A stretch of 64,000 bases of DNA from Patescibacteria group bacterium (GCA_028699085.1 JAQVVF010000002.1:3074-67073), one strand, 5' to 3'; positions 1-13,057 are shown, counted from the first letter of the stretch. Notes: generated by a model from the letters alone, not told the origin. Program-made: numbers and translations.

Positions 1-597
1 AGAACAAGTTACTGCAACTTCTGGTAAAATATGAGTTGATAATATAATTGTTTTTTCTTTGCCTAATTCTTTAATTAAATTTCTAATTTCAATAATCTGC
101 TTTGGATCAAGGCCAATTGTTGGCTCATCCAAAATTAAAACTTTTGGATCGCCGATTAAAGCCTGCGCCAAACCAACTCTCTGTTTATAGCCTTTTGAAA
201 GACGAGAGATAATCTCATTCTTCATATGTGAAATACCACAACGCTCCATGATATTCTTGATATGCTGATTTTTCTTTTCTGGTTCGACATCTTTCAATTC
301 TGCAATATATCTTAAAAAAGAATAAACTTCCATATCTTGATATAATGGAGTATTTTCTGGCAAATAACCAATTCTTTTTCTAACTTCTACAGGATCGTTA
401 AAAACATCAAAGCCATCAATTTCTACTTTTCCAGAAGTTGGAGGAAAAAAACCAGTCAAAATTCTCATAGTTGTTGTTTTTCCAGCACCATTAGGACCTA
501 AAAAACCGATTATTTCACCTTTCTGTACTTCAAAAGAAACACCGTCAAGAGCTTTAAAATCTGCGTATGTTTTTGTAAGATTTTCTACTTTAATCAT
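1..597 (-). CDS. ABC transporter ATP-binding protein (CcmA/GldA-like), truncated at the window edge
   Basis: Hand translation from ATG 597: MIKVENLTK..GPNGAGKTT (Walker A), LSKGYKQR (signature), ILDEPT (Walker B), STH. Not in the ORF track. Confidence 0.9.
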   Translation of the reverse strand, partial: MIKVENLTKTYADFKALDGVSFEVQKGEIIGFLGPNGAGKTTTMRILTGFFPPTSGKVEIDGFDVFNDPVEVRKRIGYLPENTPLYQDMEVYSFLRYIAELKDVEPEKKNQHIKNIMERCGISHMKNEIISRLSKGYKQRVGLAQALIGDPKVLILDEPTIGLDPKQIIEIRNLIKELGKEKTIILSTHILPEVAVTCS

Positions 598-718
598 AAT
601 GTTAGTGTTTATACCATAATAGCGTCTTGAGTATTTTTGTCAATCAAAGTTATAAACATCTTGACGGATAATATTATTGTGGCTAAATAAAATATTTATT
701 AATTATTTTCAAAATCTC

Positions 719-747
719 TTGACTATTAAAATTAAATCTACTAAACT
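719..747 (+). promoter_or_regulatory. sigma70-type promoter of the tRNA-Arg cluster
   Basis: TTGACT-17 bp-TAAACT, about 40 nt upstream of the first tRNA. Confidence 0.7.
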
Positions 748-784
748 GATATATTAGAAATAAATATTCTTCCCTTCGAAGTTC

Positions 785-861
785 GGACCTGTAGCTCAGC
801 TGGATAGAGCGTCCGTCTCCGGAACGGAAGGTCACCGGTTCGAATCCGGCCAGGTCCACCA
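785..861 (+). tRNA. tRNA-Arg(CCG)
   Basis: Acceptor GGACCTG/CAGGTCC, anticodon arm TCCGT-CTCCGGA-ACGGA, T-loop TTCGAAT, CCA encoded. Confidence 0.95.
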
Positions 862-880
862 GCCATTCTTGTTCTTTTTA

Positions 881-953
881 GGCCCCATAGCTCAGTGGAT
901 AGAGCAGCGGTTTCCTAAACCGCGGGTCGCCAGTTCAAGTCTGGCTGGGGTCA
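881..953 (+). tRNA. tRNA-Arg(CCT)
   Basis: Acceptor GGCCCCA/TGGGGTC, anticodon arm GCGGT-TTCCTAA-ACCGC, CCA not encoded. Confidence 0.93.
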
Positions 954-973
954 CAACCACCAGTTTACGGTTA

Positions 974-1049
974 GCGCCTGTAGCTCAGTGGATAGAGCAG
1001 CGGACTTCGAATCCGACTGTCGCAGGTTCAAATCCTGTCAGGCGCGCCA
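974..1049 (+). tRNA. tRNA-Arg(TCG)
   Basis: Acceptor GCGCCTG/CAGGCGC, anticodon arm CGGA-CTTCGAA-TCCG, CCA encoded. Confidence 0.93.
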
Positions 1050-1074
1050 AATTCAGATATTCTGTTTGAGTCAA

Positions 1075-1150
1075 GGGCCTGTAGCTCAGTGGATAGAGCA
1101 TCCGCCTTCTAAGCGGAGGGTCGTCGGTTCGAGCCCGATCAGGCCTGCCA
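1075..1150 (+). tRNA. tRNA-Arg(TCT)
   Basis: Acceptor GGGCCTG/CAGGCCT, anticodon arm TCCGC-CTTCTAA-GCGGA, CCA encoded. Confidence 0.95.
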
Positions 1151-1220
1151 AAGTTTACACTTTTGTAAACAACCAATTTATTTCTTTGCACTTTTAATCA
1201 CAATTATTCTTGTACCTTTA

Positions 1221-1296
1221 GCGCCTGTAGCTCAGTGGATAGAGCACTGGTCTGCGGAACCAGGGGTCGTCGGTTCGAAACCGATCAGGCGCGCCA
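1221..1296 (+). tRNA. tRNA-Arg(GCG)
   Basis: Acceptor GCGCCTG/CAGGCGC, anticodon arm CTGGT-CTGCGGA-ACCAG, CCA encoded. Confidence 0.95.
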
Positions 1297-1321
1297 AACA
1301 ACATCTTTGATGTTGTTTTTT
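1297..1321 (+). terminator. Intrinsic terminator after the tRNA-Arg cluster
   Basis: AACAACATC-TTT-GATGTTGTT followed by a T run. Confidence 0.7.
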
Positions 1322-1395
1322 CTTTGACAAAAATTAATAAATTCAGTATTAATTAAAATTATTATAAAAAATTGAAAATTTGCTTAAGAATACTA

Positions 1396-1423
1396 TTGCA
1401 AATATTTTTTAGAAGCCTATAAT
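1396..1423 (+). promoter_or_regulatory. Putative promoter of arcA-argS
   Basis: TTGCAA-16 bp-TATAAT. Confidence 0.55.
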
Positions 1424-1520
1424 GTGCTGAAGCACCTTGACAATTTATTACATTTTTTGAAAAATCGAAAGGGCAAATGCCCTAGCAAAGCAGGCAAAAC
1501 CTGCAAGGAGCAAGAAGAAG

Positions 1521-2774
1521 ATGGAACAAAAAACAAAAGGATTGAAAGTTTATTCTGAAATTGGACGACTCCGTCGAGTCATGATTCATTTCCCTGGTAA
1601 CAACCATGCCTTGATGACTCCTGACAATATCAATCCTGGAAGCGAGAACTATTTGCTCTATGATGATATCGTCAATCCCAAGCGTACCAGACAGGAATTT
1701 CATACCTTTGCCGATATCTTGAGAGCTGTCGCCGAAGTCGTCACCATCGAAGATTTGATGACTGATATTTTCCGCGATCCGCAAATTCGTCTTCATGCAA
1801 TCAATATTGTTGCAAAAATTGAAGGTCTTAACCAAAATGACGCTTCAGAACTCGACTCTCTCGAAGGAGACCAGCTGACGCGTACGTTCATCATCGGCCG
1901 TTACGATGGTCAGATGAATGGCAAGAAATACTTTGAGCCTGATCCCAATTTGATTTTCACTCGCGATATTGCAGCTATTGTTGGCAATCATGCAGTTCTC
2001 TGCTATGCCAGCAAGAAAGCTCGCAATCGTGAGATGGCAATTGTCCGACTTGTTCTGAAATATCATCCGCTCTTCAGCGATCTCAAGTTGATTGACATCA
2101 ACGAAGATACTGATCAAATCGTTACCATTGAAGGCGGAGACATGGCAGTCGTTAGCGACAAAGTAGTTCTGGTTGGATGTTCCGAAAGGACTAACGAAAT
2201 TGCCATTGACCGGCTCGCCAATCGCCTTCTGCAAAATGGTTTCGAAACTGTCGCTCGAGTCAGTCTCGCTGAGGCTCGCTCGTGCATGCACTTGGATACG
2301 ATCTTCACTCGCATTTCTCACAACGAAGCAATTGTTCATGCTCCAATGGTTTTGAAAAATGGTGGCTTGAAAATCGAGTACAGATCGAAGCGTATCAAAG
2401 AATGGACTAGAGATAACAACAACTTGATTAGCTTCCTCTATGCAAACAATATCGAACTTGATCCCATCGTCTGTGGTGGACATAATGAAGTCAATCAGCT
2501 CCGCGAACAGTGGACCGATGGCGCCAACATGTTTGCACTGGCACCCGGAGTAGTCATTGGCTACAACTGCAATGACAATACTCTGCTGGAACTGGGCAAG
2601 CGAGGTTACAAAGTCATCGACGCCGACGAATTCGTCCGCAATTCCGGCTACTACATGTATCGCTACGAGCAGGCTGATTGGAAACTGGCGATTGCTCTGC
2701 CTGGCGCTGAACTCTCTCGCGGCCGCGGCGGTCCTCGCTGTATGACCTGCCCTCTCCTGCGTGATGACGTCTGA
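1521..2774 (+). CDS. arcA: Arginine deiminase
   Basis: VYSEIGRL N-terminus, FTRD, IEGGD, MHLDT, EQWTDGAN, ELSRGRGGPRCMTCPLLR; catalytic Glu/His/Cys present. Confidence 0.92.
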   Translation: MEQKTKGLKVYSEIGRLRRVMIHFPGNNHALMTPDNINPGSENYLLYDDIVNPKRTRQEFHTFADILRAVAEVVTIEDLMTDIFRDPQIRLHAINIVAKIEGLNQNDASELDSLEGDQLTRTFIIGRYDGQMNGKKYFEPDPNLIFTRDIAAIVGNHAVLCYASKKARNREMAIVRLVLKYHPLFSDLKLIDINEDTDQIVTIEGGDMAVVSDKVVLVGCSERTNEIAIDRLANRLLQNGFETVARVSLAEARSCMHLDTIFTRISHNEAIVHAPMVLKNGGLKIEYRSKRIKEWTRDNNNLISFLYANNIELDPIVCGGHNEVNQLREQWTDGANMFALAPGVVIGYNCNDNTLLELGKRGYKVIDADEFVRNSGYYMYRYEQADWKLAIALPGAELSRGRGGPRCMTCPLLRDDV

Positions 2775-2790
2775 TCTAAGGAGTCACCAA

Positions 2791-4656
2791 ATGAAAACTC
2801 AAAATCTTTTGGAATTTGTTTGTTATCAACTTCTTTTCGCTGCACAGACTACTGTCAATCCAGACTTCAGTACAGCCGAATTTTCACCAAGCAAGCTCAA
2901 GAAACCGCCCAAGCCAGAACTTGGCGATTTCGCTTTTCCTTGCTTTCAGTTGAAAGACTTCGGTGATCCCGCAGACATCGCAGTCTACATTCAAGATTTT
3001 CTGCAAACTGCTATTCCAGCCAATGATCTGATCAAGAAGGTTGAAGTCCAAGGACCTTTCGTCAACATTCATCTCAACACCGGAGTTTTGGCCCAATTGG
3101 TCTGCTCACAGATCTTGGAAGAAGGCCCAAACTACGGCACAGGTTCTGTTGGCCACGGCCAGCGCGTCATGATCGAATTCTTGGCTCCAAACAGTAACAA
3201 GCCTTTGCATCTCGGACACGTCCGGAATGCTTTGCTTGGCGCCAGCATCTCTCGAATTTTCCAAGCCATGGGCTTCGAAGTTATTCGCGCCAACTTGATC
3301 AACGATCGAGGTGCCCACATCTGCAAAAGCATCTATGCTTGGCAAACATGGGGCAATGGCGAAACTCCGCAAAGTACTGGCATCAAGGGCGACCACTTCG
3401 TTGGACGCTACTATGCCCTGTATGGAAAGAAGGAAGACGAAGCTTTTGCTGCTCTTCTCACGTCTCAAGGACTTGATCCGCAAGCTCCTTTGGATGACAA
3501 GGAAGAACGCAAAGCTGCTTTCCTGGAACAGTATCCACCAGCCTTGGCTGTCAAAGATATGCTACTGAAATGGGAAGCCAGCGATCCGAAAGTCTTAGCC
3601 CTTTGGCAGATGATGAATGGCTGGACATACGCCGGTTTTGATGCAACCCTCGCCAAACTCGGAATCGTATTCGATCGAATCTACTATGAAAGCACTACCT
3701 ACTTGCTTGGAAGACAACATGTATTGGACGGACTTAGTCGAGGCGTCTTTTACCGCAAAGAAGATGGAGCAGTTTACGCTGACCTAAAAAATGAAGGTCT
3801 TGATGACAAACTGCTTCTCCGATCAGATGGCACTTCAGTTTATATCACTCAAGATATCGGCACTGCGATTTTGAAATCAACAGACTATCAGCCTCTTGCT
3901 CGATCAGTCTATATCGTTGGCTCAGAACAAATTCACCATTTCAAAGTCCTCTTCTTGCTTCTGAAAATGCTTGACATTGAAGAAGTCAAAAATACTCTCC
4001 TCTATCATCTGCCTTATGGCATGGTCAACCTGCCTGAAGGAAAAATGAAGTCACGACTGGGCAAAATCGTTGATGCTGATGACTTGATCAGAAGCATCGT
4101 CGAACTCGCCAGAACTGAAGCTGAAGCTCTCAACGAAGGAAGGGAAGAAAAAATCACTGAAGTCGAACTTGACGAAATCGCTCGGCAAGTCGGACTTGGA
4201 GCGTTGAAATTCTTCTTCCTTGACAGCAAAGCCCTCTCGGAAATGCGCTACGACCCCAAAAAGTCAATCGCATTCAATGGCCGAACTGGACCTTTCGTCC
4301 AATATACGTATGCTAGAATTGCCAGCTTGCTACGGAAAGCTGAAGAAATCAAGGATCCAGCAAAAATTGATTTCTTGACTCTGCACGAAAGCGACGAACA
4401 TTCATTGCTCCTCGCTCTCACAGAGTTTGGAGCAGTAATTCAGGCAGCAGCAGAAAACTACGATCCATCAAAAATTTCTGCTTATCTTTTTGACCTTGCT
4501 AGAATTTTCAATCGATTCTATGCAAGCCATCGAATCTTTTCTGACGATGTGCCAAAGCAAACTCAATTAGCTCGTCTTGCACTTTGCAAATGCACTGGTG
4601 TTGTAATCAAAAAAGGCCTCGATCTCCTAGGAATCGAAGCCCCTGAAAAAATGTAA
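2791..4656 (+). CDS. argS: Arginine--tRNA ligase
   Basis: PNSNKPLHLGH (HIGH motif), RSDGTSVYITQD, GKMKSR, GPFVQYTYAR, C-terminal LLGIEAPEKM; AGGAG SD before ATG 2791. Confidence 0.96.
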   Translation: MKTQNLLEFVCYQLLFAAQTTVNPDFSTAEFSPSKLKKPPKPELGDFAFPCFQLKDFGDPADIAVYIQDFLQTAIPANDLIKKVEVQGPFVNIHLNTGVLAQLVCSQILEEGPNYGTGSVGHGQRVMIEFLAPNSNKPLHLGHVRNALLGASISRIFQAMGFEVIRANLINDRGAHICKSIYAWQTWGNGETPQSTGIKGDHFVGRYYALYGKKEDEAFAALLTSQGLDPQAPLDDKEERKAAFLEQYPPALAVKDMLLKWEASDPKVLALWQMMNGWTYAGFDATLAKLGIVFDRIYYESTTYLLGRQHVLDGLSRGVFYRKEDGAVYADLKNEGLDDKLLLRSDGTSVYITQDIGTAILKSTDYQPLARSVYIVGSEQIHHFKVLFLLLKMLDIEEVKNTLLYHLPYGMVNLPEGKMKSRLGKIVDADDLIRSIVELARTEAEALNEGREEKITEVELDEIARQVGLGALKFFFLDSKALSEMRYDPKKSIAFNGRTGPFVQYTYARIASLLRKAEEIKDPAKIDFLTLHESDEHSLLLALTEFGAVIQAAAENYDPSKISAYLFDLARIFNRFYASHRIFSDDVPKQTQLARLALCKCTGVVIKKGLDLLGIEAPEKM

Positions 4657-4677
4657 TTAACTTTGTACTTTGTTTTT

Positions 4678-4702
4678 AGTCCTTCATCTCGAAGGATTTT
4701 TT
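4678..4702. terminator. Terminator between convergent argS and thrC-like genes
   Basis: AGTCCTTC-ATCTC-GAAGGATT followed by a T run. Confidence 0.6.
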
Positions 4703-4712
4703 ATTACCTTTT

Positions 4713-5777
4713 TTATTTCTTTTTACTACCAGTCAAAATCAAAACAATTTTCTCGCCTTTTTTAAATTTTATTTTTTTCAATGCTGGAAACACAGTTATT
4801 GCAGTTGGCTCTAAAAAAATTAATTCTTTTTCTTGAATTATTTTATCCCACTTTTTGATTTCATTATCAGTAACTTCGACAACAAAACCTTTTGTCTCTT
4901 TCAATACAAGAATTGCTTTGGGAGAACAATAACTTTCTAAAGCAACAATGCCTTCGGCAATTGAATCATTTATCTTTTTTAATTGATAATATGACTTATT
5001 TTTTTCTAACGCCTTTTTAACTGGATCAGCATTCTTTATTTGTACGCCGATTAGTTGAGGAATCTTTTCAATTTTATTATCCTTTTTCAATATTTCAAAA
5101 CCTCTGAATATACCATGGAACAAACAACCATTTCCAATTGGAATAATTATCTTGTCAGGTAGATTATTCTTAAAACTTTTATATAATTCAAAACTAATTT
5201 CCTGACTGCCTAAATCTCTAAATGAATTTTGTCCAGCAGAAAAATGATATATCTTTTTTTCATTATCAATTACATTTCTGTAAACATCTTCAAAAAATCC
5301 AGGTTTTTTAATTACCTTAGCTCCAAAAGATTTAATTAATTCTAATTTACTTTTTGAAACTTTTTTTGGCACAAAACATTTGCATTTTAATCCAGCTTTT
5401 TTTGCATAATATGCTGCTGATACAGCTGCATTACCAGAAGATATTACTCCAACTTCTTTCACTTTTTGTTCTTTAGCAACATTAATTGCTACAACAGTTT
5501 CTCGATCTTTAAATGATCCTGTTGGATTTAAATTTTCCATTTTTCCAAAAACCTCAATGTTGGGAAAATATTTTTTTAGATTATCAAATTTCTTTAGTGG
5601 CGTGTTGCCTTCTTTCAAACTTAACCATCTTTTTTTCAAGCTCTTTTTCAAAACAGAAATATCTTTAACAACTGGAGTAAAATTATCATAGTATAAATTA
5701 TCCAAACAACACTTTGGATTTTTTTTATCAAAATCAAATTTTTTACCGCACTTTAAACAAACAATTTGCAACTTCAT
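4713..5777 (-). CDS. Threonine synthase-like PLP enzyme (fold type II)
   Basis: N-terminal CxxC, LKEGNTPL, NPTGSFKDR (PLP Lys), SSGNA, PIGNG, ILTG. Confidence 0.85.
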   Translation of the reverse strand: MKLQIVCLKCGKKFDFDKKNPKCCLDNLYYDNFTPVVKDISVLKKSLKKRWLSLKEGNTPLKKFDNLKKYFPNIEVFGKMENLNPTGSFKDRETVVAINVAKEQKVKEVGVISSGNAAVSAAYYAKKAGLKCKCFVPKKVSKSKLELIKSFGAKVIKKPGFFEDVYRNVIDNEKKIYHFSAGQNSFRDLGSQEISFELYKSFKNNLPDKIIIPIGNGCLFHGIFRGFEILKKDNKIEKIPQLIGVQIKNADPVKKALEKNKSYYQLKKINDSIAEGIVALESYCSPKAILVLKETKGFVVEVTDNEIKKWDKIIQEKELIFLEPTAITVFPALKKIKFKKGEKIVLILTGSKKK

Positions 5778-5816
5778 ATATTAAAAAAAATAATTAATAA
5801 AAAAAAGAATGAAGAA

Positions 5817-6371
5817 TCAATCAACCAGCATCCGGAATTCTCCATTCAGCTCGAAAAGAACAACCTGCAGAGAAAAATCCGGCATTGCTTTTCGCAAAAT
5901 CGCCAAAAGATTTTTCTGCTCTGACTCATAATAATAAGGAACGATATTGATTGCTTCACCTGCAATTTCAGATTTTTTCAAACAGAGTCCAGCATCCAGC
6001 ATTACACAAGTAAACTTGCCACTCGGATATTTCAATTTGATCGTACCATTCAGTTTCCAACTTCCATCTTCTTTCTGCTTGGGACGTCTTCTTGGCGGAA
6101 GCTCCATCAACATCTGAAAAACTCTTTCTGCATCAGGAACCAGAGAAGCTTCATAAGCGATATAATCAGGGTTCGGAGCAAAATCAACAACCAAAGCATC
6201 TCTTTCCGTTTCATCCAGATCTTTTAATTCATGAAAATCATCAATAAACAACATTGTCTTATCATCCAATTGTCTCAATTGCTCCAATATTCTCCAGCCA
6301 ACTACTGACCATAACGTTGGACCCTTTGCTTGATAATAGTGTCCAGCCTCCAAGATCCTTGCTTCTTCCAT
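5817..6371 (-). CDS. Hypothetical protein (184 aa), possibly HUP/Rossmann-like fold
   Basis: Strong SD GGAGGAGG before ATG 6371; motifs EAGHYY, LFIDDFHE, PDYIAYE, TCVMLDA; GC-richer than its neighbours. Confidence 0.75.
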   Translation of the reverse strand: MEEARILEAGHYYQAKGPTLWSVVGWRILEQLRQLDDKTMLFIDDFHELKDLDETERDALVVDFAPNPDYIAYEASLVPDAERVFQMLMELPPRRRPKQKEDGSWKLNGTIKLKYPSGKFTCVMLDAGLCLKKSEIAGEAINIVPYYYESEQKNLLAILRKAMPDFSLQVVLFELNGEFRMLVD

Positions 6372-6397
6372 TTTCCTCCTCCTCTCTATCCAAAAGC

Positions 6398-6428
6398 AAA
6401 AAAAAGATCTCGGACTTCCGAGATCTTT
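6398..6428 (-). terminator. Attenuator-type terminator in the 5' leader of the hypothetical gene
   Basis: AAAGATCTCGG-AAGT-CCGAGATCTTT with a T8 tract, about 27 nt before the start codon. Confidence 0.8.
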
Positions 6429-6449
6429 ATGTATCAATTTTTCAAAAAA

Positions 6450-6521
6450 TTAAAGATTCGGGAATCCATTTTCCATTAATTCATTTCTACGACGATTTGT
6501 AATTGCAGTAATATTTTTCAT
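6450..6521 (-). CDS. Putative leader peptide MKNITAITNRRRNELMENGFPNL
   Basis: Hand-translated 23-codon ORF between the promoter and the terminator; CGT CGT AGA at 6486-6494. Confidence 0.6.
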   Translation of the reverse strand: MKNITAITNRRRNELMENGFPNL

Positions 6522-6530
6522 TCACTTTAA

Positions 6531-6559
6531 AGAATACGCTAAGTCAAAATAAGTGTCAA
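6531..6559 (-). promoter_or_regulatory. Promoter of the leader peptide and hypothetical gene
   Basis: TTGACA-17 bp-TATTCT. Confidence 0.7.
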
Positions 6560-6576
6560 GTCGATTTTTATAAAAG

Positions 6577-7173
6577 TTATTCTAATTTTCCACCAGTTAT
6601 CTTATCAATATATTCCTTATTTTTCATTAGTATTTTTCCAACTCTAGGATATGCTTTGAATCGATTATAAGATATTTTGAATGGATAAATATCAGCTTTG
6701 TTTTTTTCAACATTAAAAAATGTCCGACAATCTGAATAAGCTAAAATTTTTTCTTCTATTGTTTTTGCTAAAGTATCTTTATTACCTAATCCAATTTTTT
6801 TATTCACTTCTTTTGTCTGACCAACACCGCCCATATGCCGAATACAAACTCTTGCAATTTTTTCCGGCCACTTCATTTTCTTCGCTAGTTCATAACCTCT
6901 TAGTCCATGATAAATTGCTGGCTGTAATTCCTTTGATGCTTTGCTTCCAGAAATCATTCGTCCTAAATCATGAATATAACAACCAATTTTCAAAAAATCC
7001 AAATCAATTTTGTAGCCATTTTTAATTGCTAAATTTGCAATCTTTTTAGAAAAATTCCAAACTACAGTTTCATGATCCCAAGTTTCATCGACTTGCTCTG
7101 ATATACCATTTTCTTTTGCTATTTTTTTCATTAAACTTTTGACTTGTAATAAACTAGGTAATTTTTTCAACAT
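6577..7173 (-). CDS. HD-domain phosphohydrolase (HDIG type)
   Basis: H..HDLGR..HG..CIRH..EEKILAYSD; start probably 7173. Confidence 0.85.
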   Translation of the reverse strand: MLKKLPSLLQVKSLMKKIAKENGISEQVDETWDHETVVWNFSKKIANLAIKNGYKIDLDFLKIGCYIHDLGRMISGSKASKELQPAIYHGLRGYELAKKMKWPEKIARVCIRHMGGVGQTKEVNKKIGLGNKDTLAKTIEEKILAYSDCRTFFNVEKNKADIYPFKISYNRFKAYPRVGKILMKNKEYIDKITGGKLE

Positions 7174-8015
7174 ATTTTTGAATCTAAAAAAACAATGAAA
7201 ACTAGATATCCAATTATACATCCAATTGTAATTGGAGGCAATGCCGGAAAAGCTTTTTTTTCTTTCTTAAAATAAAAATAAACATTAATTGCCATAACAC
7301 CAAACAAAGCTCCAATTATTACTAAAACAGAACTTAACGAACTATCTCTCAAAACTGAAACTGCAAAAATAATTGGAAAAGCTAAATCTCCAGTTCCTAA
7401 AAACATAAAATCTTCACCTGGTTTTGCTTTATCTATTCCAGCTAAAAAACCGACTAATTTATTTGGCACAATAATCGATAAATTAGCGCCATTCTCCATC
7501 ATTTTTTTAAACATCAAAACCATATGCTTAGTTTTGAATACAGCAATAAAATCATAGACTGACAAAATAACAAGCATAATAATTATTTGCCCTGGCAAAA
7601 AAGATAATCCGATATAAGAGCTGATCCCAGAAATTGCTAATATAATTGCAATATTATGCGTTAAGACAGAAGGCATAAATCTCCGTAATAAAACTATAAT
7701 CAACGCCAAACCTAATCCTAAATATCCTAATGCAAAAACATCAAAAAATGCTAAACAACCCGAAAACAATAAAACATAAAAAAAACTAGAAAATATAATT
7801 CTACTTTTTGCATACTTAATCACTAATAGAACAACCACAGTACCGACTAAAAAGGCAATCAAAAATTGCCATAATGAATAAGATTGCTTTGCTACTAATT
7901 CTTTTACTTCTTCAACTTGAAAAAGTCGCCAACCCAAATATAAACCTAAAAACTGCGTTATTAAAAATAACAATCCTTCAAAAAACATAAAATTAAAAGA
8001 AAAATTTTTTTCCAA
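7167..8015 (-). CDS. Presenilin/SPP-family intramembrane aspartyl protease
   Basis: Multi-pass membrane protein with YD (SVYDFIAV), GxGD (LGTGDLAFP) and PALP. Confidence 0.88.
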   Translation of the reverse strand: MEKNFSFNFMFFEGLLFLITQFLGLYLGWRLFQVEEVKELVAKQSYSLWQFLIAFLVGTVVVLLVIKYAKSRIIFSSFFYVLLFSGCLAFFDVFALGYLGLGLALIIVLLRRFMPSVLTHNIAIILAISGISSYIGLSFLPGQIIIMLVILSVYDFIAVFKTKHMVLMFKKMMENGANLSIIVPNKLVGFLAGIDKAKPGEDFMFLGTGDLAFPIIFAVSVLRDSSLSSVLVIIGALFGVMAINVYFYFKKEKKAFPALPPITIGCIIGYLVFIVFLDSKIC

Positions 8016-8079
8016 AATTTTAAAATTATTTTATATAACACTATTTTATCATTTTTATAAAAAATAGAAATAAATAACA

Positions 8080-8106
8080 AAAAATCGTGGTTTTTCCACG
8101 ATTTTT
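8080..8106. terminator. Intrinsic terminator
   Basis: AAAAATCGTGG-TTTTT-CCACGATTTTT. Confidence 0.7.
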
Positions 8107-8114
8107 AATTTATC

Positions 8115-8687
8115 TTATTTTTCGCCTACCAACTGCACTGCATCAATTTCTGTCCATTCATTAGGAGCTTTTGTAGTATCAAGTGTAATCTTCACAGTCT
8201 TTACTAAATAATCAGTCTTGTTAAATTTTAATTGCAAATTATTTATTCCTTTTGTTGGATCATCTCCTGTCCAAATCTGATGATATTTACCGTTAGTATC
8301 CTTTAATTCAATCTTTGTTACTGCACCACTTCCATAACTTTCTTTTACTCTTACAGCAGTTGCATGAACAGCAGTAGCAAAATTAACTTCTAATGTCTCG
8401 ATGCCAACATTTTTATCCTTTGGAGCCCAAGCATTTACATCATCAGAATAAGCATTTACATTTGGTTTGCCAATTGCTTGTTTTGCTGACCAGGATTCAT
8501 CATTCTTAGCATTATTATAGGTCGATGAAGCAATCGCACTCACTGCCCATTGTCCGTTCTCATCTGACAAAATCTGACTATCAGGAACATTACTAATTGT
8601 TGCAGTTTGATTTTTGCTACAACCTGCACCAATTCCAACCAATACGATTGTCAAAAAAAATATCACAAGATAAATCCTCTTTTTCAT
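8115..8687 (-). CDS. Putative lipoprotein with discoidin/galactose-binding-like domain
   Basis: Signal peptide with GAGC lipobox; ASSTY, WSAKQAIGKPNV, AWAP, EIDAVQLVG. Confidence 0.7.
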   Translation of the reverse strand: MKKRIYLVIFFLTIVLVGIGAGCSKNQTATISNVPDSQILSDENGQWAVSAIASSTYNNAKNDESWSAKQAIGKPNVNAYSDDVNAWAPKDKNVGIETLEVNFATAVHATAVRVKESYGSGAVTKIELKDTNGKYHQIWTGDDPTKGINNLQLKFNKTDYLVKTVKITLDTTKAPNEWTEIDAVQLVGEK

Positions 8688-8713
8688 ATTTTTTACTAAT
8701 ATTTCATAAAAAA

Positions 8714-9607
8714 TTATTCCTCTAATGCTTTTTTGGTAGCAACAGGCAAATCATCAATAACATCAGTTGCTAATACTGATCTTTCTCCTAACTTTTTACT
8801 AGCAATATCGCCTGCTAACCCATGCAAAAATACTGCAGTTGCCACTGATTCAAAAGGCAAATTAATATTTGCAGCCCAATACGCCGCTGTCATTCCTGCT
8901 AATGTATCTCCTGTTCCCGCAGTTGCCAAAGCAGGTCCGCCTGATTTATTAATAATAACTCTTTCACCATCTGAAATAACAGTCTCATATCCCTTTATCA
9001 CCAAAATGCTTTTCCATTTCTTTGCTTTTTTTCTGACTAACCATTCTCTATCTCTCTCAACATTATCAACATCTAAATCACAAAGTCTTGCCATCTCGCC
9101 AGCATGAGGCAACAAAACCGTTTTATTATCTCCCCATTCTATCAAAAGCTCAACATGACCAGAAAAAGCATTTAAGCCATCTGCATCTAAAACAACATTT
9201 TTCTGCAAATCTTTTAGCCTCTTAAATAGTTTACAAATCAGATGCCTCGTCTCTTCATGTTGCGAAAGACCTGGACCAATTAAAATTACATCATATTTTT
9301 TTGCTTCTTCTATAATTCTTTCAAAAGATGATAATGCCAAAGTCTTATCTTTTGTTTCATCACAAGGCAAAGTCAAAACTTCTGGAATCAATTTTGTATA
9401 AATATCATTCAAGCTTTTTGGAAATACTAACAAAACATAACCAGCTCCAGCTCTCATTGCTGCCTCACAACATAAAGTTGCAGCTCCAGACATTCCTTCA
9501 GATCCAGCAACAATCATCACACTGCCAACAGACTTTTTATTCGCATCTTTTGGTCTGGGAGCTAAAATTTCTGGATATAATAATTTATCTTGCTCAATTG
9601 GCTTCAT
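8714..9607 (-). CDS. nnrD: ADP-dependent NAD(P)H-hydrate dehydratase (YjeF C-terminal)
   Basis: AGSEGMSGA, IGPGL, VLDADGL, PHAGEMARL, LATAGTGDTLAG. Confidence 0.92.
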   Translation of the reverse strand: MKPIEQDKLLYPEILAPRPKDANKKSVGSVMIVAGSEGMSGAATLCCEAAMRAGAGYVLLVFPKSLNDIYTKLIPEVLTLPCDETKDKTLALSSFERIIEEAKKYDVILIGPGLSQHEETRHLICKLFKRLKDLQKNVVLDADGLNAFSGHVELLIEWGDNKTVLLPHAGEMARLCDLDVDNVERDREWLVRKKAKKWKSILVIKGYETVISDGERVIINKSGGPALATAGTGDTLAGMTAAYWAANINLPFESVATAVFLHGLAGDIASKKLGERSVLATDVIDDLPVATKKALEE

Positions 9608-9630
9608 AATATTAAATAGTTCTTCAATAC

Positions 9631-9679
9631 TTTTTACTTTTACCTTGTAACTTTTTAATTTTTTCTTTTGACTTTTAAC
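9631..9679. repeat. Heptad-periodic dispersed element (TTTTTAC family)
   Basis: tttttac ttttacc ttgtaac tttttaa ttttttc ttttgac ttttaac; related copies at 39714, 46327 and 46665. Confidence 0.8.
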
Positions 9680-10762
9680 TTAAAATCTCAACATCGCTCC
9701 AATTCCACCCATTCCCGCTAATTTTTCATTATCTTCCACAAATTCAATTTTTGCTTTATGGCTAAAAACCTTTTGAACTAATTCATCAACTACATCCTTG
9801 ACATCTTCTGTTTTGAAACTGCAATAAGGACAAACAACTTCATCAAGACCCAAAAAATCACAATTTGGACATTTCTTTCCAGTTGTACTTAATTTAGAAT
9901 CAAGCAACAAAGTTTTAACATCTCTCTCTTGTGCTGCATTCAAAACATTTTTCAAACCGGCAACAGCTAGCTGACCATTCAAACTATTATTTAATTCTTC
10001 AACAAGCATTGCCTCATTTTTTCTTTCTACTTTTTCTTGAACTTGCAATGACTGTTCTAAAAAATGTTCATTAGGCTTGAATAATTCTGTATAAAATTCA
10101 CCTACTACTCTATTTTTCAATTCTGTATGCAAAATTTTCTTTAATTCCGGCAAGATCTCTTTTGATCCAGCTAAAATCAGTCTATCAAATCCTTTTTCTT
10201 TCCAAAATTTAAAAAGCTGATCATTGATCTTTTTCAAATGACGATGCACATGCTCTTCGATATGCAAAGCCTCGCCTTGTTGTACTAATCCGCCTTGATC
10301 ATGTTTGCCAGGAAACTCATCAAAAATATAGCTAAAATCTTGAATCACACCCAAAAAGACTGTAAACAATTTTGCTTTTTCTTTATCACAAACTACAACA
10401 CAATATCTTTCTAATTCATCAAGGACTTGTAACAGTTGCTCAATATGAACATTTTTTTCAACATAAGCTCCTGTCTTAATTGGACAAGGAAATTTATAGA
10501 TTGACCAAAAATTTTTAGATGGACTAGCGTAAAATGCCATGCCTCGGATTTTTTTATCCAATCTCAAATCAATCCATTCTTCAACTTGTTTTGTTGCTTC
10601 ACTTCCCAATTTTTCTTCAACATTTTTCAATAAATCTTTTAGCTTATTTTCAATTTCTTCTGGCTTGTAACGTCTTTGATCGCAATTTAAATAAAGTGTT
10701 ACTACATCCTCTTTGTCGCTTTGTAAACGATTTAATTTTGTTATGTCTTTATTTTCTATCAT
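9680..10762 (-). CDS. Bacterial archaeo-eukaryotic release factor family protein (baeRF, eRF1-like)
   Basis: eRF1-like layout: TLYL, GMAF, GKHDQGGxxQ loop, LILAG, CxxC..CxxC, C-terminal GGIGAMLRF. Confidence 0.85.
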   Translation of the reverse strand: MIENKDITKLNRLQSDKEDVVTLYLNCDQRRYKPEEIENKLKDLLKNVEEKLGSEATKQVEEWIDLRLDKKIRGMAFYASPSKNFWSIYKFPCPIKTGAYVEKNVHIEQLLQVLDELERYCVVVCDKEKAKLFTVFLGVIQDFSYIFDEFPGKHDQGGLVQQGEALHIEEHVHRHLKKINDQLFKFWKEKGFDRLILAGSKEILPELKKILHTELKNRVVGEFYTELFKPNEHFLEQSLQVQEKVERKNEAMLVEELNNSLNGQLAVAGLKNVLNAAQERDVKTLLLDSKLSTTGKKCPNCDFLGLDEVVCPYCSFKTEDVKDVVDELVQKVFSHKAKIEFVEDNEKLAGMGGIGAMLRF

Positions 10763-10775
10763 ATTTTTAATTTAT

Positions 10776-10805
10776 TGTAGGGAGCAAAAATTTTTGCTCC
10801 CTACA
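10776..10805. repeat. Perfect 30-bp palindrome, GTAG-REP-like
   Basis: TGTAGGGAGCAAAAA|TTTTTGCTCCCTACA. Confidence 0.75.
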
Positions 10806-10818
10806 TATTTTATCACAA

Positions 10819-10847
10819 TTTACAAAATTTTAAAAATCAAGTATAAT
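10819..10847 (+). promoter_or_regulatory. Promoter of the tRNA-Gly/Thr cluster
   Basis: TTTACA-17 bp-TATAAT. Confidence 0.7.
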
Positions 10848-10877
10848 TTCTCAAGAATAATAAATAATAATTCACGA

Positions 10878-10948
10878 GCGAGTATAGCACAGTGGTAGTG
10901 CGCTTGCTTCCCAAGCAAGATATGTGAGTTCGATTCTCATTACTCGCT
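10878..10948 (+). tRNA. tRNA-Gly(CCC)
   Basis: Acceptor GCGAGTA/TACTCGC, anticodon arm CTTGC-TTCCCAA-GCAAG, U73. Confidence 0.93.
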
Positions 10949-10952
10949 ATCC

Positions 10953-11135
10953 GCCAGAGTAGCTCAGTCGGCAGACCTGCCCGCCAGAGCCAAAGCCCGT
11001 GTAGCTCAGTTGGTAGAGCAATGCTTTCGTAAAGCAGAGGTCGTCGGTTCGATCCCGACCATGGGCTCTGGCTTTGGCAGGCGGGGCAACACTTTCGTAA
11101 AGTGAAGGTCAAGAGTTCGATTCTCTTCTCTGGCT
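10953..11135 (+). tRNA. Interrupted (outer) tRNA-Thr(CGT); parts 10953-10975 and 11086-11135
   Basis: The joined parts give a 73-nt cloverleaf: GCCAGAG/CTCTGGC, D-stem GCTC/GA|GC, CACT-TTCGTAA-AGTG, AAGAG-TTCGATT-CTCTT; 110-nt insertion between positions 23 and 24. Confidence 0.8.
10995..11067 (+). tRNA. tRNA-Thr(CGT), intact, nested inside the outer tRNA
   Basis: Acceptor GCCCGTG/CATGGGC, anticodon arm TGCT-TTCGTAA-AGCA, T arm GTCGG-TTCGATC-CCGAC. Confidence 0.92.
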
Positions 11136-11146
11136 AAAAAACAACG

Positions 11147-11187
11147 TTCGTAAAGCAAAGGTCGAAAGTAGATCCTGGAAAGTGGCT
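11147..11187 (+). pseudogene. Degenerate 3' remnant of a third tRNA-Thr(CGT)
   Basis: TTCGTAAAGCAAAGGTCG matches the inner tRNA TTCGTAAAGCAGAGGTCG at 17 of 18 nt; ends TGGCT like the outer tRNA; no complete cloverleaf. Confidence 0.45.
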
Positions 11188-11208
11188 AATATTTAAAATT
11201 AAACATTC

Positions 11209-11233
11209 AAAAACCCGTCATTCGACGGGTTTT
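11209..11233. terminator. Bidirectional terminator
   Basis: AAAACCCGTC-ATTC-GACGGGTTTT. Confidence 0.8.
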
Positions 11234-11251
11234 AGTATGCTCAGTTTTTTC

Positions 11252-13057
11252 CTATTTCACTCCAATCGCAAAATATTGTGTCTTAATTGGATATTTTGTG
11301 AAATATTTTACAATGAATTTCTTGTCTTTCTTGATTATCTTGGCATCTGTGAATGTTGTATTAATATTCTGCCATGTGCCAGTTCCTTTTTTGTATTTTA
11401 AGAATAGATTTGCTTTTGTTGCTGATTTATTCTTTTTAAGATATTTCTTTAATTGCTTTTTAGTAAATTTGAATGATACTTTGATTTTGAATTTCTGTGA
11501 TGATTTTTTTACTTTGTATTTGTATAAATTTGTTTTCAATTTCCACTTTTTCAAGAACGTTTTGTTTGGATAACCAGTTGATTTATTCCATTTCATCCAA
11601 TATGCGCTGTTCTTTGTTAATTTGGTTGGAAGCTTTGTGAAATTGATTGTTAGACTTTGACCAGAGATTATTTCATTATTTAATTCTGATTCAAGAATAA
11701 ATTTCTGTCCTGCCCTTAATAAATCTTCGGCCTGATTATTTTCAACCTGGTTAGCTTCAATGATGTATGCTTCTGTTTTGATTTCTTCTGTATTACCAAG
11801 ACTGTCAATTGAAAAGAATTTTAAAGTTGTATCTTGAGTAATTACTATTGGATTTGAATAAACTGTTGAAGAAGTTGTTGGATCTGTGCCATCAATTGTG
11901 TAATAAGTTGCAACAACTGTTGAGTCTGCATCTGTGGCAGATAAAGTAATAGTTTGAGGAGCAGTATATGTTCCTCCAGCTAGCGAAGCTGTGGTTGTAG
12001 GAGCAAGGTAATCAATAAACCATGAAGCAATGTAATTTGCTGATATACCGCCGGCAGTTGTAAAATCACCTCCGACATAGAGTTCGTCATTATAGACTGT
12101 TAATGCATCTACTTCATAATTCATTCCAGATCCTACTGCACTCCAAGAAAAGCCATTCCATTTCGAAATACAATTACCATAATCACCAGTAAAATCTCCA
12201 CCAGCATAAAGTTCATTATCATATACAACTAATGAATAAATATTTCCTGTAATTGTAGTGCCAACAGCACCTAAAGAATTATTATCCCAAACAGCAATAT
12301 AGTTAGAAACACCACCGCCAGCAATAGTGAATATTCCGCCAATATACAATTCATTATCGTAAACTGCTAAGGAATACACAAAACTATCAAGCTCAGTTCC
12401 ATCTCCAACTTTGCTCCAAGAACTTCCATTCCATTTCGAGATGTAATTGCCATTAACAGATGTAAATGCTCCTCCAACATAAAGTTCGTTATTATAAACA
12501 CAAAGAGAATTTACATAAGAGTTTAATTCTGTTCCAGCTCCAACTGGAGTCCATGAAGAATCATTCCATTTAACGATATAATTAGCAGGAGCACCATCAA
12601 TATTAGCATTACCACCAACATATAATTCATTATTATAGACAGCTAAGGAATAAACATTACCAGTTACTGCAGTGCCAACAGCACTTAAAGAACTGCCATC
12701 CCAAACAGCAATATAATTGGCAACACTGCCGCCAGCAATAGTAAATGTTCCGCCAATATATAGCTTGTTATTATAAACTACCATAGAAGTAGCTCGACCA
12801 TTGTTAATTCCTGTACCTGCTACTGAACTCCATGAACTGCCATTCCATTTAGCAATTCTTGAACCAGGACTAGTTGTAAAATAACCACCGACATATAGTT
12901 CATTATTGTAAACTGCAAGCGAACGTATATAGCTATCAGTTCCATCACCCAATGCACTCCAAGATGAACTTGTTCTAGCAAAAGATTGATTAACGAAACA
13001 ATAAACACCAATGACTAGAATCATAAACAACGTCATTCTTAAAAATATTTTTTTCAT
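11252..13057 (-). CDS. Secreted beta-propeller repeat protein + chitobiase C-terminal/Fn3-like domain + Lys-rich C-terminal domain (paralog 1)
   Basis: Signal peptide; repeats WNGSSWS.VG..V.SLAVYNNELYVGG.FT; YYTIDGTDP; ends YFAIGVK. Confidence 0.85.
   Translation of the reverse strand: MKKIFLRMTLFMILVIGVYCFVNQSFARTSSSWSALGDGTDSYIRSLAVYNNELYVGGYFTTSPGSRIAKWNGSSWSSVAGTGINNGRATSMVVYNNKLYIGGTFTIAGGSVANYIAVWDGSSLSAVGTAVTGNVYSLAVYNNELYVGGNANIDGAPANYIVKWNDSSWTPVGAGTELNSYVNSLCVYNNELYVGGAFTSVNGNYISKWNGSSWSKVGDGTELDSFVYSLAVYDNELYIGGIFTIAGGGVSNYIAVWDNNSLGAVGTTITGNIYSLVVYDNELYAGGDFTGDYGNCISKWNGFSWSAVGSGMNYEVDALTVYNDELYVGGDFTTAGGISANYIASWFIDYLAPTTTASLAGGTYTAPQTITLSATDADSTVVATYYTIDGTDPTTSSTVYSNPIVITQDTTLKFFSIDSLGNTEEIKTEAYIIEANQVENNQAEDLLRAGQKFILESELNNEIISGQSLTINFTKLPTKLTKNSAYWMKWNKSTGYPNKTFLKKWKLKTNLYKYKVKKSSQKFKIKVSFKFTKKQLKKYLKKNKSATKANLFLKYKKGTGTWQNINTTFTDAKIIKKDKKFIVKYFTKYPIKTQYFAIGVK

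Follow-up and report, generated by a model that had tools for sequence, protein, structure and literature searches.

A recurrent cassette in Patescibacteria joins a predicted arginine deiminase to a second arginyl-tRNA synthetase and a spare set of arginine tRNAs

Introduction

We analyzed a 64,000-nucleotide stretch of DNA (the window) from a Patescibacteria group bacterium (GCA_028699085.1, JAQVVF010000002.1:3074-67073). Near its start, five arginine tRNA genes precede genes for an arginine deiminase-family protein (arcA) and an arginyl-tRNA synthetase (ArgRS; argS), an island to which an earlier note had drawn attention. The layout is non-random and recurrent. The window lies on contig C20 of a 1.17 Mb genome in 29 contigs (G000); G and L numbers label the compared Patescibacteria genomes and loci, and the survey set comprised 401 genomes of the phylum.

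Results

The island carries a spare ArgRS and a spare tRNA-Arg set

ARAGORN and Rfam confirmed five consecutive plus-strand tRNA-Arg genes that together cover the six Arg codons (Table 1), and the A20 identity base reported earlier was present in the D-loop of all five (GGATAGAG). Arg accounts for 9 of the 54 tRNA calls in G000, and a chance run of five Arg genes has p ~4e-5 per position, or ~2e-3 over 50 positions. Resident tRNA-Arg genes with anticodons GCG, TCT, TCG, and CCT are spread over three other contigs; CCG was found in the island alone. Mean tRNA identity was 73% within the island and 57% between island and resident genes, the variable loop measures 5 nt in the island versus 4 nt in the residents, and CCA is encoded in 4/5 island genes versus 0/4 resident genes. 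These differences mark the island tRNAs as a separate set. Compared with the array of G001 (785-1296 versus L010:11884-12408), the anticodon order was identical and the tRNA bodies were different. The G000 CCG tRNA was closest to the GCG tRNA of G001 (89%), and G001 TCG was 83% like TCT, a pattern that suggests gene conversion or anticodon switching inside the array.

The island ArgRS scored 392 bits against TIGR00456 (cut-off 262) and combines HIGH and KMSKS motifs and Arg-pocket residues with an N-terminal, a catalytic, and a DALR domain. Its E129, Y351, and D355 align with E148, Y347, and D351 of the yeast enzyme, which we take to have a role in guanidinium binding. Enzymes labelled Bacteroidota, KSB1, and Gemmatimonadetes share 44-48% identity with it, and in a quick tree it nested within this assemblage, a long way from the resident copy. 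That copy was found when we searched the genome for a second argS, as the earlier note had advised: a 535 aa ArgRS of host-like GC content (31.5%), on the same contig at a distance of 155 kb (C20:163335-164939) and ~26% identical to the island enzyme. The island ArgRS and tRNA set are spare.

The deiminase scored 213 bits against PF02274 and 268 bits against the NCBIfam arcA model, under the cut-off of 489. It keeps D149, E204, D207, H257, D259, and C407 and aligns with solved arginine deiminases (ADIs; E 1.5e-47). In the accessible part of PMC9007349, FTRD and HLD form a guanidino-substrate signature, whereas CtlX has FPNN and HTN; the G000 deiminase has the former pair. We also confirmed that arcA and argS lie 16 nt apart, with AGGAG upstream of both. 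Their reported GC contrast with the adjacent threonine-synthase-like (thrC-like) gene stands, at 46.8% and 45.7% versus 27.3%, slightly less than the 50% against 25% first given; the mean over 696 G000 genes of at least 200 aa is 32.5% (sd 3.6). Likewise, CGN codons account for 84% and 77% of Arg codons in arcA and argS versus 36% genome-wide.

No match to arcB (ornithine carbamoyltransferase, OTC) or arcC (carbamate kinase) was found in the whole G000 genome (97.7% complete), in searches that detected 14/14 positive controls. The view that this is not the ATP-yielding ADI pathway is thereby borne out, and a full arginine deiminase system (ADS) elsewhere in G000 is ruled out. CtlX and RocD queries had no match in G000 either, and one Arg/ornithine antiporter (ArcD) query, from G258, gave no tblastn match, other transporter families not having been searched.

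Table 1. Features of the cassette, in window coordinates
Feature	Position	Strand	Remarks
Variable cassette, approximate limits	666..6576	.	ABC-transporter ATPase gene and HD-domain gene on its sides; from G002 comparison
Promoter-like site before tRNA array	719..747	+	TTGACT-17-TAAACT; consensus match alone
tRNA-Arg(CCG)	785..861	+	A20; CCA encoded; no resident counterpart found
tRNA-Arg(CCT)	881..954	+	A20; no encoded CCA; resident duplicate on C16
tRNA-Arg(TCG)	974..1049	+	A20; CCA encoded; resident duplicate on C16
tRNA-Arg(TCT)	1075..1150	+	A20; CCA encoded; resident duplicate on C8
tRNA-Arg(GCG)	1221..1296	+	A20; CCA encoded; resident duplicate on C5
Terminator-like hairpin (1296-1318) and T run, end of tRNA array	1296..1325	+	Consensus match alone
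Two promoter-like sites before deiminase gene	1396..1465	+	10/12 matches each; consensus match alone
Arginine deiminase-family protein, 417 aa	1521..2774	+	FTRD149, E204GGD207, H257LD259, GGPRC407
Second ArgRS, 621 aa	2791..4656	+	E129, N134, HLGH, Y351, D355, KMKSR; Bacteroidota/KSB1/Gemmatimonadetes-like type
Terminator-like hairpin after argS	4678..4706	+	Consensus match alone
thrC-like pyridoxal phosphate (PLP) enzyme, 354 aa	4713..5777	-	Host-like GC, 27.3%
Mini-ArgRS, 184 aa, predicted ArgRS Rossmann core	5817..6371	-	No HIGH or KMSKS; Cys122 at ArgRS Tyr position

The module recurs and was assembled more than once

A PF02274 match was present in 18 of the 401 genomes and was full-length in eight, for which wide neighborhoods were read. 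In 5/8, arcA was directly followed by argS; G203 and G258 carry the classic arcABDC with neither argS nor tRNAs nearby. Together with a metagenome contig (L101), six Patescibacteria genomes gave seven loci with deiminase and ArgRS, and an Arg-only tRNA array was present at 5/6 evaluable module loci. The deiminase is patchily distributed, in 4/16 genomes of the order and in 1/6 and 1/26 of two other classes; within the order, argS adjoined it in 4/4. The proposed synteny survey thus found the arcA-argS link conserved. Outside Patescibacteria, ArgRS was found at 0/60 other deiminase loci, within up to 6 kb and on many short contigs.

The neighbors differ from locus to locus. G001 has the same five-tRNA arrangement as G000, with ctlX and rocD inserted between array and arcA (CtlX above cut-off); G008 has arcA-argS with a ctlX-like gene; and the G003 contig begins within arcA and has OTC two genes past argS. 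In G063, arcA-argS is accompanied by a peptidase gene, five tRNA-Arg genes, and a speA-like gene, and in G128 by four tRNA-Arg genes and a pepT-like gene. arcB is missing in G000, G001, G063, and G128, and arcC scored above cut-off in none of the six module genomes. Two ArgRS genes were present in four of the six (G000, G001, G008, and G063), and one was found in G003 (76% complete).

We then followed the tRNA genes. A CCG-CCT tandem occurred in 4/401 genomes, all with arcA-argS. CCG-CCT scans also returned 50 metagenome and 6 viral loci, 52/56 of them outside an arcA-argS module; the Arg-only arrays of at least four isoacceptors among these were L143, which is the G128 locus, and L100, L101, and L120, which seem to come from one organism. 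Both array contigs of sufficient length carried deiminase and ArgRS. A general Arg-Arg tRNA pattern missed G128 and matched 11/246 genomes, finding runs in three module genomes and single pairs in eight (G158, counted in this tally alone, is one of the eight). We rejected the idea that tRNA-Arg clustering is common anyway: single pairs without deiminase occurred in 8/246 genomes, and the seven checked had just two Arg genes within 1.5 kb. The earlier note had been prepared to give up its proposal if arcB and arcC lay elsewhere and the arcA-argS adjacency was not conserved, or if tRNA-Arg genes clustered commonly in relatives independently of these genes. We found arcB and arcC absent, arcA-argS conserved, and arrays of at least four Arg isoacceptors solely beside arcA/argS, so the proposal stands on these points.

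A single clade of module ArgRSs was rejected (approximately unbiased test, p-AU 2.5e-80; 0.002 without G128), and the G128 module ArgRS grouped with a relative's resident enzyme. Since the module ArgRSs do not form one clade, deiminase and ArgRS came together on more than one occasion. For the deiminases, the test did not reject a single origin (p-AU 0.086); five nested matches had been included in it once the tree had been inspected. Near-identical contigs over array, arcA, argS, and mini-ArgRS were present in four metatranscriptome runs from one study; such contigs could be DNA and cannot rank genes, so we make no expression claim. Separately, G047:C133 (L097) has a divergent deiminase-like gene followed by argE-like, argH, argG, and argS genes, an arginine-synthesis cluster tied to ArgRS.

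A variable chromosomal slot has a tryptophan-associated counterpart

The same-genus genome G002 aligned with window positions 1-665 and 6577-7984, with different cargo in between. The feature, first delimited as 785..4656, goes on past 4656, to ~6576. In G002 (L247:4132-12309, on G002:C3), the slot holds a second tryptophanyl-tRNA synthetase (TrpRS), a tRNA-Trp, and a group II PLP decarboxylase, along with five further open reading frames (ORFs), including methyltransferase-like, PEP-utilising, and low-molecular-weight phosphatase-like ones. Homologues of this decarboxylase were present in 10/401 genomes. TrpRS lay within a few genes in the two closest, with trpD in G064 (L267) and with tRNA-Trp and trpR in G017 (L268); the third-closest and six more distant decarboxylase loci that were read had no TrpRS or ArgRS match. 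One tRNA for the one-codon amino acid Trp and five for the six-codon Arg are what a "consume and compensate" design predicts.

Promoters and terminators were called by consensus match alone, and promoter-like sites numbered 24 versus 12.5 expected, so the evidence on transcription units is weak. We found no att-like repeats at the cassette, and none of its four proteins matched a PADLOC anti-phage defence model. A phage or plasmid origin was considered and rejected: no viral relative of the deiminase was confirmed, the mini-ArgRS had no match in 50,697 phage and 72,556 plasmid records, and the six viral CCG-CCT loci were mixed tRNA arrays without deiminase or ArgRS.

Elsewhere in the window, positions 9680-10762 encode a release-factor-like protein (baeRF family 10) with weak matches to ribosome hibernation factor models, and positions 10877-11135 hold tRNA-Gly and tRNA-Thr, after which a tRNA-like stretch that may be the remnant of a tRNA scores weakly, at 24.6 bits, short of the Rfam threshold. 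Two genes that flank the module in G003, one pepT-like and one an unknown ORF of 587 aa, have their G000 counterparts ~88 kb off, at G000:C20:94481-97332 (52% identity for the unknown ORF).

A predicted ArgRS-core paralog accompanies the module

At five of the seven module loci (G000, G001, G003, G008, and L101) we observed a small protein that we call mini-ArgRS; in L101 it sits between argS and the deiminase gene, and a thrC-like gene adjoins it at 3/7 loci. Its profile had no match in G063 and G128, and it occurs without the module in G183 and G274. The family has 159 representatives at 50% clustering. Adding 93 of the 150 sequences listed to the window protein gave an alignment of 94 near-full-length sequences of 171-243 aa, of which 0/94 matched a relevant Pfam family.

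The structure model (pLDDT 97.3) superposed on yeast ArgRS with Z 17.7 and rmsd 3.5 over 168 residues, and ArgRS filled the top six VIA and top four Foldseek places in fold searches. Profile comparisons agreed: hhalign against ArgRS gave 93.8% (E 1.7e-7), and the mini-ArgRS profile matched 20/20 checked long ORFs scoring as ArgRS. The mini-ArgRS segments YEAS, KEDGS, and TCVMLD align with YYES, KEDGA, and VYITQD of ArgRS, so that C122 takes the place of the ArgRS Tyr and D126 that of the ArgRS Asp; E8 corresponds to the ArgRS Glu by eye alone. An HxGH or KMSKS-like motif was present in 0/94 members, there is no anticodon-binding domain, and ATP-dependent charging is therefore unlikely. All nine of E8, H11, D44, E74, C122, D126, K133, Y148, and Q152 are kept in 75/94 members and C122 in 88/94, a conservation consistent with a catalytic role for C122. 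On the strength of the models, we predict that mini-ArgRS is an ArgRS-derived catalytic-core paralog. The cyclodipeptide synthase (CDPS) family PF16715 matched 0/94 members, and no CDPS was seen among the best 50 fold matches listed; for one member of the mini-ArgRS family, the language-model neighbors are CDPS clusters (0.86), which we treat as a lead only.

Where it occurs without the module, mini-ArgRS lies beside a racemase, an epimerase, or HisKA_7TM sensor kinases. Three distant homologues (L193, L194, and L196, in G139, G190, and G307) stand with a HisKA_7TM sensor kinase and an unknown protein of ~390 aa, an arrangement that suggests putative signal-synthase and receptor modules; two were confirmed by hidden Markov model on called ORFs, and the G139 one came from a genome search. 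A 673-aa protein (L198:428-2446, G232) and a 703-aa protein (L199:6545-8653, G076) each contain a mini-ArgRS region, have no Pfam match, and lie directly 3' of a tRNA, tRNA-Lys and tRNA-Arg TCT, respectively; an arginase gene is near the latter, and a single-sequence model of the 703-aa fusion reached pLDDT 34. At L197:5151-6895 (G263), argS beside proS reads as three ORFs, from frameshifts or assembly errors.

Discussion

Clusters of arc with argS2 and of hdc with hisRS are reportedly found in Oenococcus. An aminoacyl-tRNA synthetase (aaRS) beside a catabolic cluster is already known. Enterococcus and Lactobacillus have tyrS-tdcA-tyrP-nhaC clusters (PMC3315439 and PMC11595044, in the parts available), and argS adjoins the arc cluster of Lactococcus lactis (PMC5300872 and PMC7818446, likewise in part). 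In the available text of PMC3315439, the tyramine-cluster tyrS is induced by low Tyr and is proposed to secure charging during decarboxylation; for an E. durans strain, the accessible text of PMC3315439 and PMC11595044 favors a single, inducible tyrS. G000 shares with this type an amino-acid-consuming enzyme beside its cognate aaRS, in many cases an additional copy, and the same purpose may be proposed. It differs in adding a full isoacceptor set and a mini-ArgRS, in that neither OTC nor carbamate kinase was found and the one antiporter query had no match, and in having no T box match in Rfam over window positions 1-12000.

The Saccharibacteria arcABCD/E system, described in the accessible part of PMC8764695 as complete and ATP-making with a Firmicutes-related ArcA, shares phylum and first enzyme family with G000, whereas the G000 deiminase lies outside that ArcA clade and has no arcB or arcC partner. 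The ArcA plus CtlX route (PMC9007349, seen in part) is represented by CtlX and RocD in G001 and a CtlX-like protein in G008, and by neither in G000. Like CDPS, Glu-Q-RS, and MshC, mini-ArgRS is a stand-alone class I core with no anticodon-binding domain, and like CDPS it is free of ATP motifs (PMC9437257, in part); unlike them, it would derive from ArgRS rather than from TyrRS (the tyrosyl enzyme) or TrpRS, and it has a conserved Cys. "ArgRS" has 0 occurrences in the available main text of PMC9437257. A literature search covering few subscription journals and no supplements turned up no paper on arcA-argS joined to a tRNA-Arg array, on an ArgRS core standing alone, or on anti-phage defence by amino-acid depletion; nor did it find an arcB/arcC-less form tied to ArgRS or the interchange with Trp.

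We consider it somewhat probable, on balance, that the locus is a swappable cassette in which the deiminase drains the small Arg pool of the cell while the foreign-type ArgRS and spare tRNA set keep Arg codons translated, all of these activities being predicted. The deiminase would make citrulline and ammonia out of free Arg without any ATP gain; citrulline would be the end product in G000, and relatives would add CtlX, RocD, OTC, or SpeA. When Arg is scarce, the second ArgRS would still charge efficiently, and it would work best on tRNAs of its own set, a preference that would explain the carriage of all isoacceptors. Mini-ArgRS, optional at 5/7 loci, might bind Arg or Arg-tRNA without ATP. 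Candidate benefits of destroying Arg include ammonia release or pH control, nitrogen or polyamine supply, and starvation of a host or virus; ammonia release with lineage-specific catabolism is the most conservative choice. The earlier suggestion that the deiminase controls the Arg pool came near to this reading and missed the duplication of the resident ArgRS and four tRNAs, the mini-ArgRS, and the Trp counterpart. Its further suggestions, that the enzyme acts on Arg-tRNA or is specialized for analogues, find no support in motifs that look like those of an ordinary free-arginine deiminase, beside an ArgRS with an apparently ordinary Arg pocket.

Several observations weigh against a consuming and compensating cassette. 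G128 has an array yet one ArgRS, of its family's resident type; G008 has no tRNA array; and in L101 the deiminase gene faces argS instead of preceding it. The tRNA redundancy is partial in G063, with CCG and GCG outside the array, and in G128, with ACG and TCT. Resident tRNA-Arg genes have A20 too, so the spare ArgRS can perhaps do without tRNAs of its own, and an additional tRNA alone does not help under amino-acid limitation. The terminator-like hairpin between tRNAs and arcA does not indicate a single shared transcript and suggests that the array and arcA-argS may be separate transcription units. Because the four positive genomes served to design the CCG-CCT pattern, only the 397 negatives are informative. 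The substrate of the G002 decarboxylase is presumed from its neighbors alone, and its best matches are Ser, Tyr, and His decarboxylases. The model leaves the mini-ArgRS and the thrC-like gene unexplained, and the activity, kinetics, and regulation that it assumes are predictions from sequence.

Mini-ArgRS invites another reading, unlikely in our judgment, in which a tRNA-dependent biosynthetic unit uses a CDPS-like mini-ArgRS to move Arg from Arg-tRNA via Cys to an acceptor, with the spare ArgRS and tRNAs supplying it and the deiminase tuning or tailoring the flux. An ArgRS-core fold stripped of ATP motifs with nine widely kept residues, the CDPS lead, and distant members beside HisKA_7TM kinases, a racemase, and an epimerase, with one fusion just 3' of tRNA-Arg, all suit this idea; the arrays of G063 and G128 lack mini-ArgRS, however, G008 has mini-ArgRS and no array, G183 and G274 have it with no module, and a transferase would not need all isoacceptors. 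Quite unlikely, too, are uncoupled neighbors, an acquired ArgRS-tRNA block midway in displacing the resident system where arginine genes gather by co-transfer. Partial redundancy in G063 and G128 is as expected under displacement, and the patchy distribution agrees with it, as would a single deiminase origin, which the test did not reject, but ArgRSs were recruited from different lineages, five distinct anticodons are kept though the tRNA bodies change, and the same logic is seen for Trp.

Enzymes of the thrC-like type can catalyze gamma-elimination on O-substituted homoserine, and Pseudomonas is said to combine a PLP lyase with a canavanyl-tRNA deacylase. The deiminase and thrC-like enzyme might destroy an analogue such as canavanine while the second ArgRS discriminates and mini-ArgRS deacylates mischarged tRNA-Arg, a scheme favored by the thrC-like gene adjoining a Cys-bearing Arg-pocket protein at three loci. 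We think it very unlikely: mini-ArgRS keeps acidic guanidinium-site residues and so has no visible means to spare Arg-tRNA, canavanine serves as an ADI inhibitor in the accessible part of PMC8764695, and neither the Trp counterpart nor the loci without both genes need an analogue. Recoding of Arg codons, for example to citrulline, by an orthogonal ArgRS-tRNA set would account for a complete, distinct isoacceptor set adjoining a predicted citrulline-producing enzyme; with E129, Y351, and D355 kept in the island ArgRS, it is almost certainly wrong.

Animal immunity depletes amino acids by arginase and by IDO1-WARS logic. We entertain, as a doubtful but serious prospect, that interchangeable cassettes, which would deplete Arg or Trp while shielding the cell's own ribosomes, are a starvation weapon against host or virus, the Arg version with a new ATP-independent, Cys-dependent ArgRS core acting on Arg-tRNA; if so, they would be a bacterial counterpart of that logic.

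Overall, the cassette would extend the lactic acid bacterial design, a consuming enzyme with a spare synthetase, to whole tRNA sets, assembled repeatedly and for both Arg and Trp in bacteria stripped of most metabolism. Protection of translation by such synthetases is put forward as a proposal in the available text of the papers cited above, and a compact cassette makes it testable. The island also offers natural, diverged ArgRS-tRNA sets within one cell, and the mini-ArgRS family, a predicted paralog of the ArgRS core that has no name and whose active site looks invariant, is a good candidate for new tRNA-dependent chemistry.

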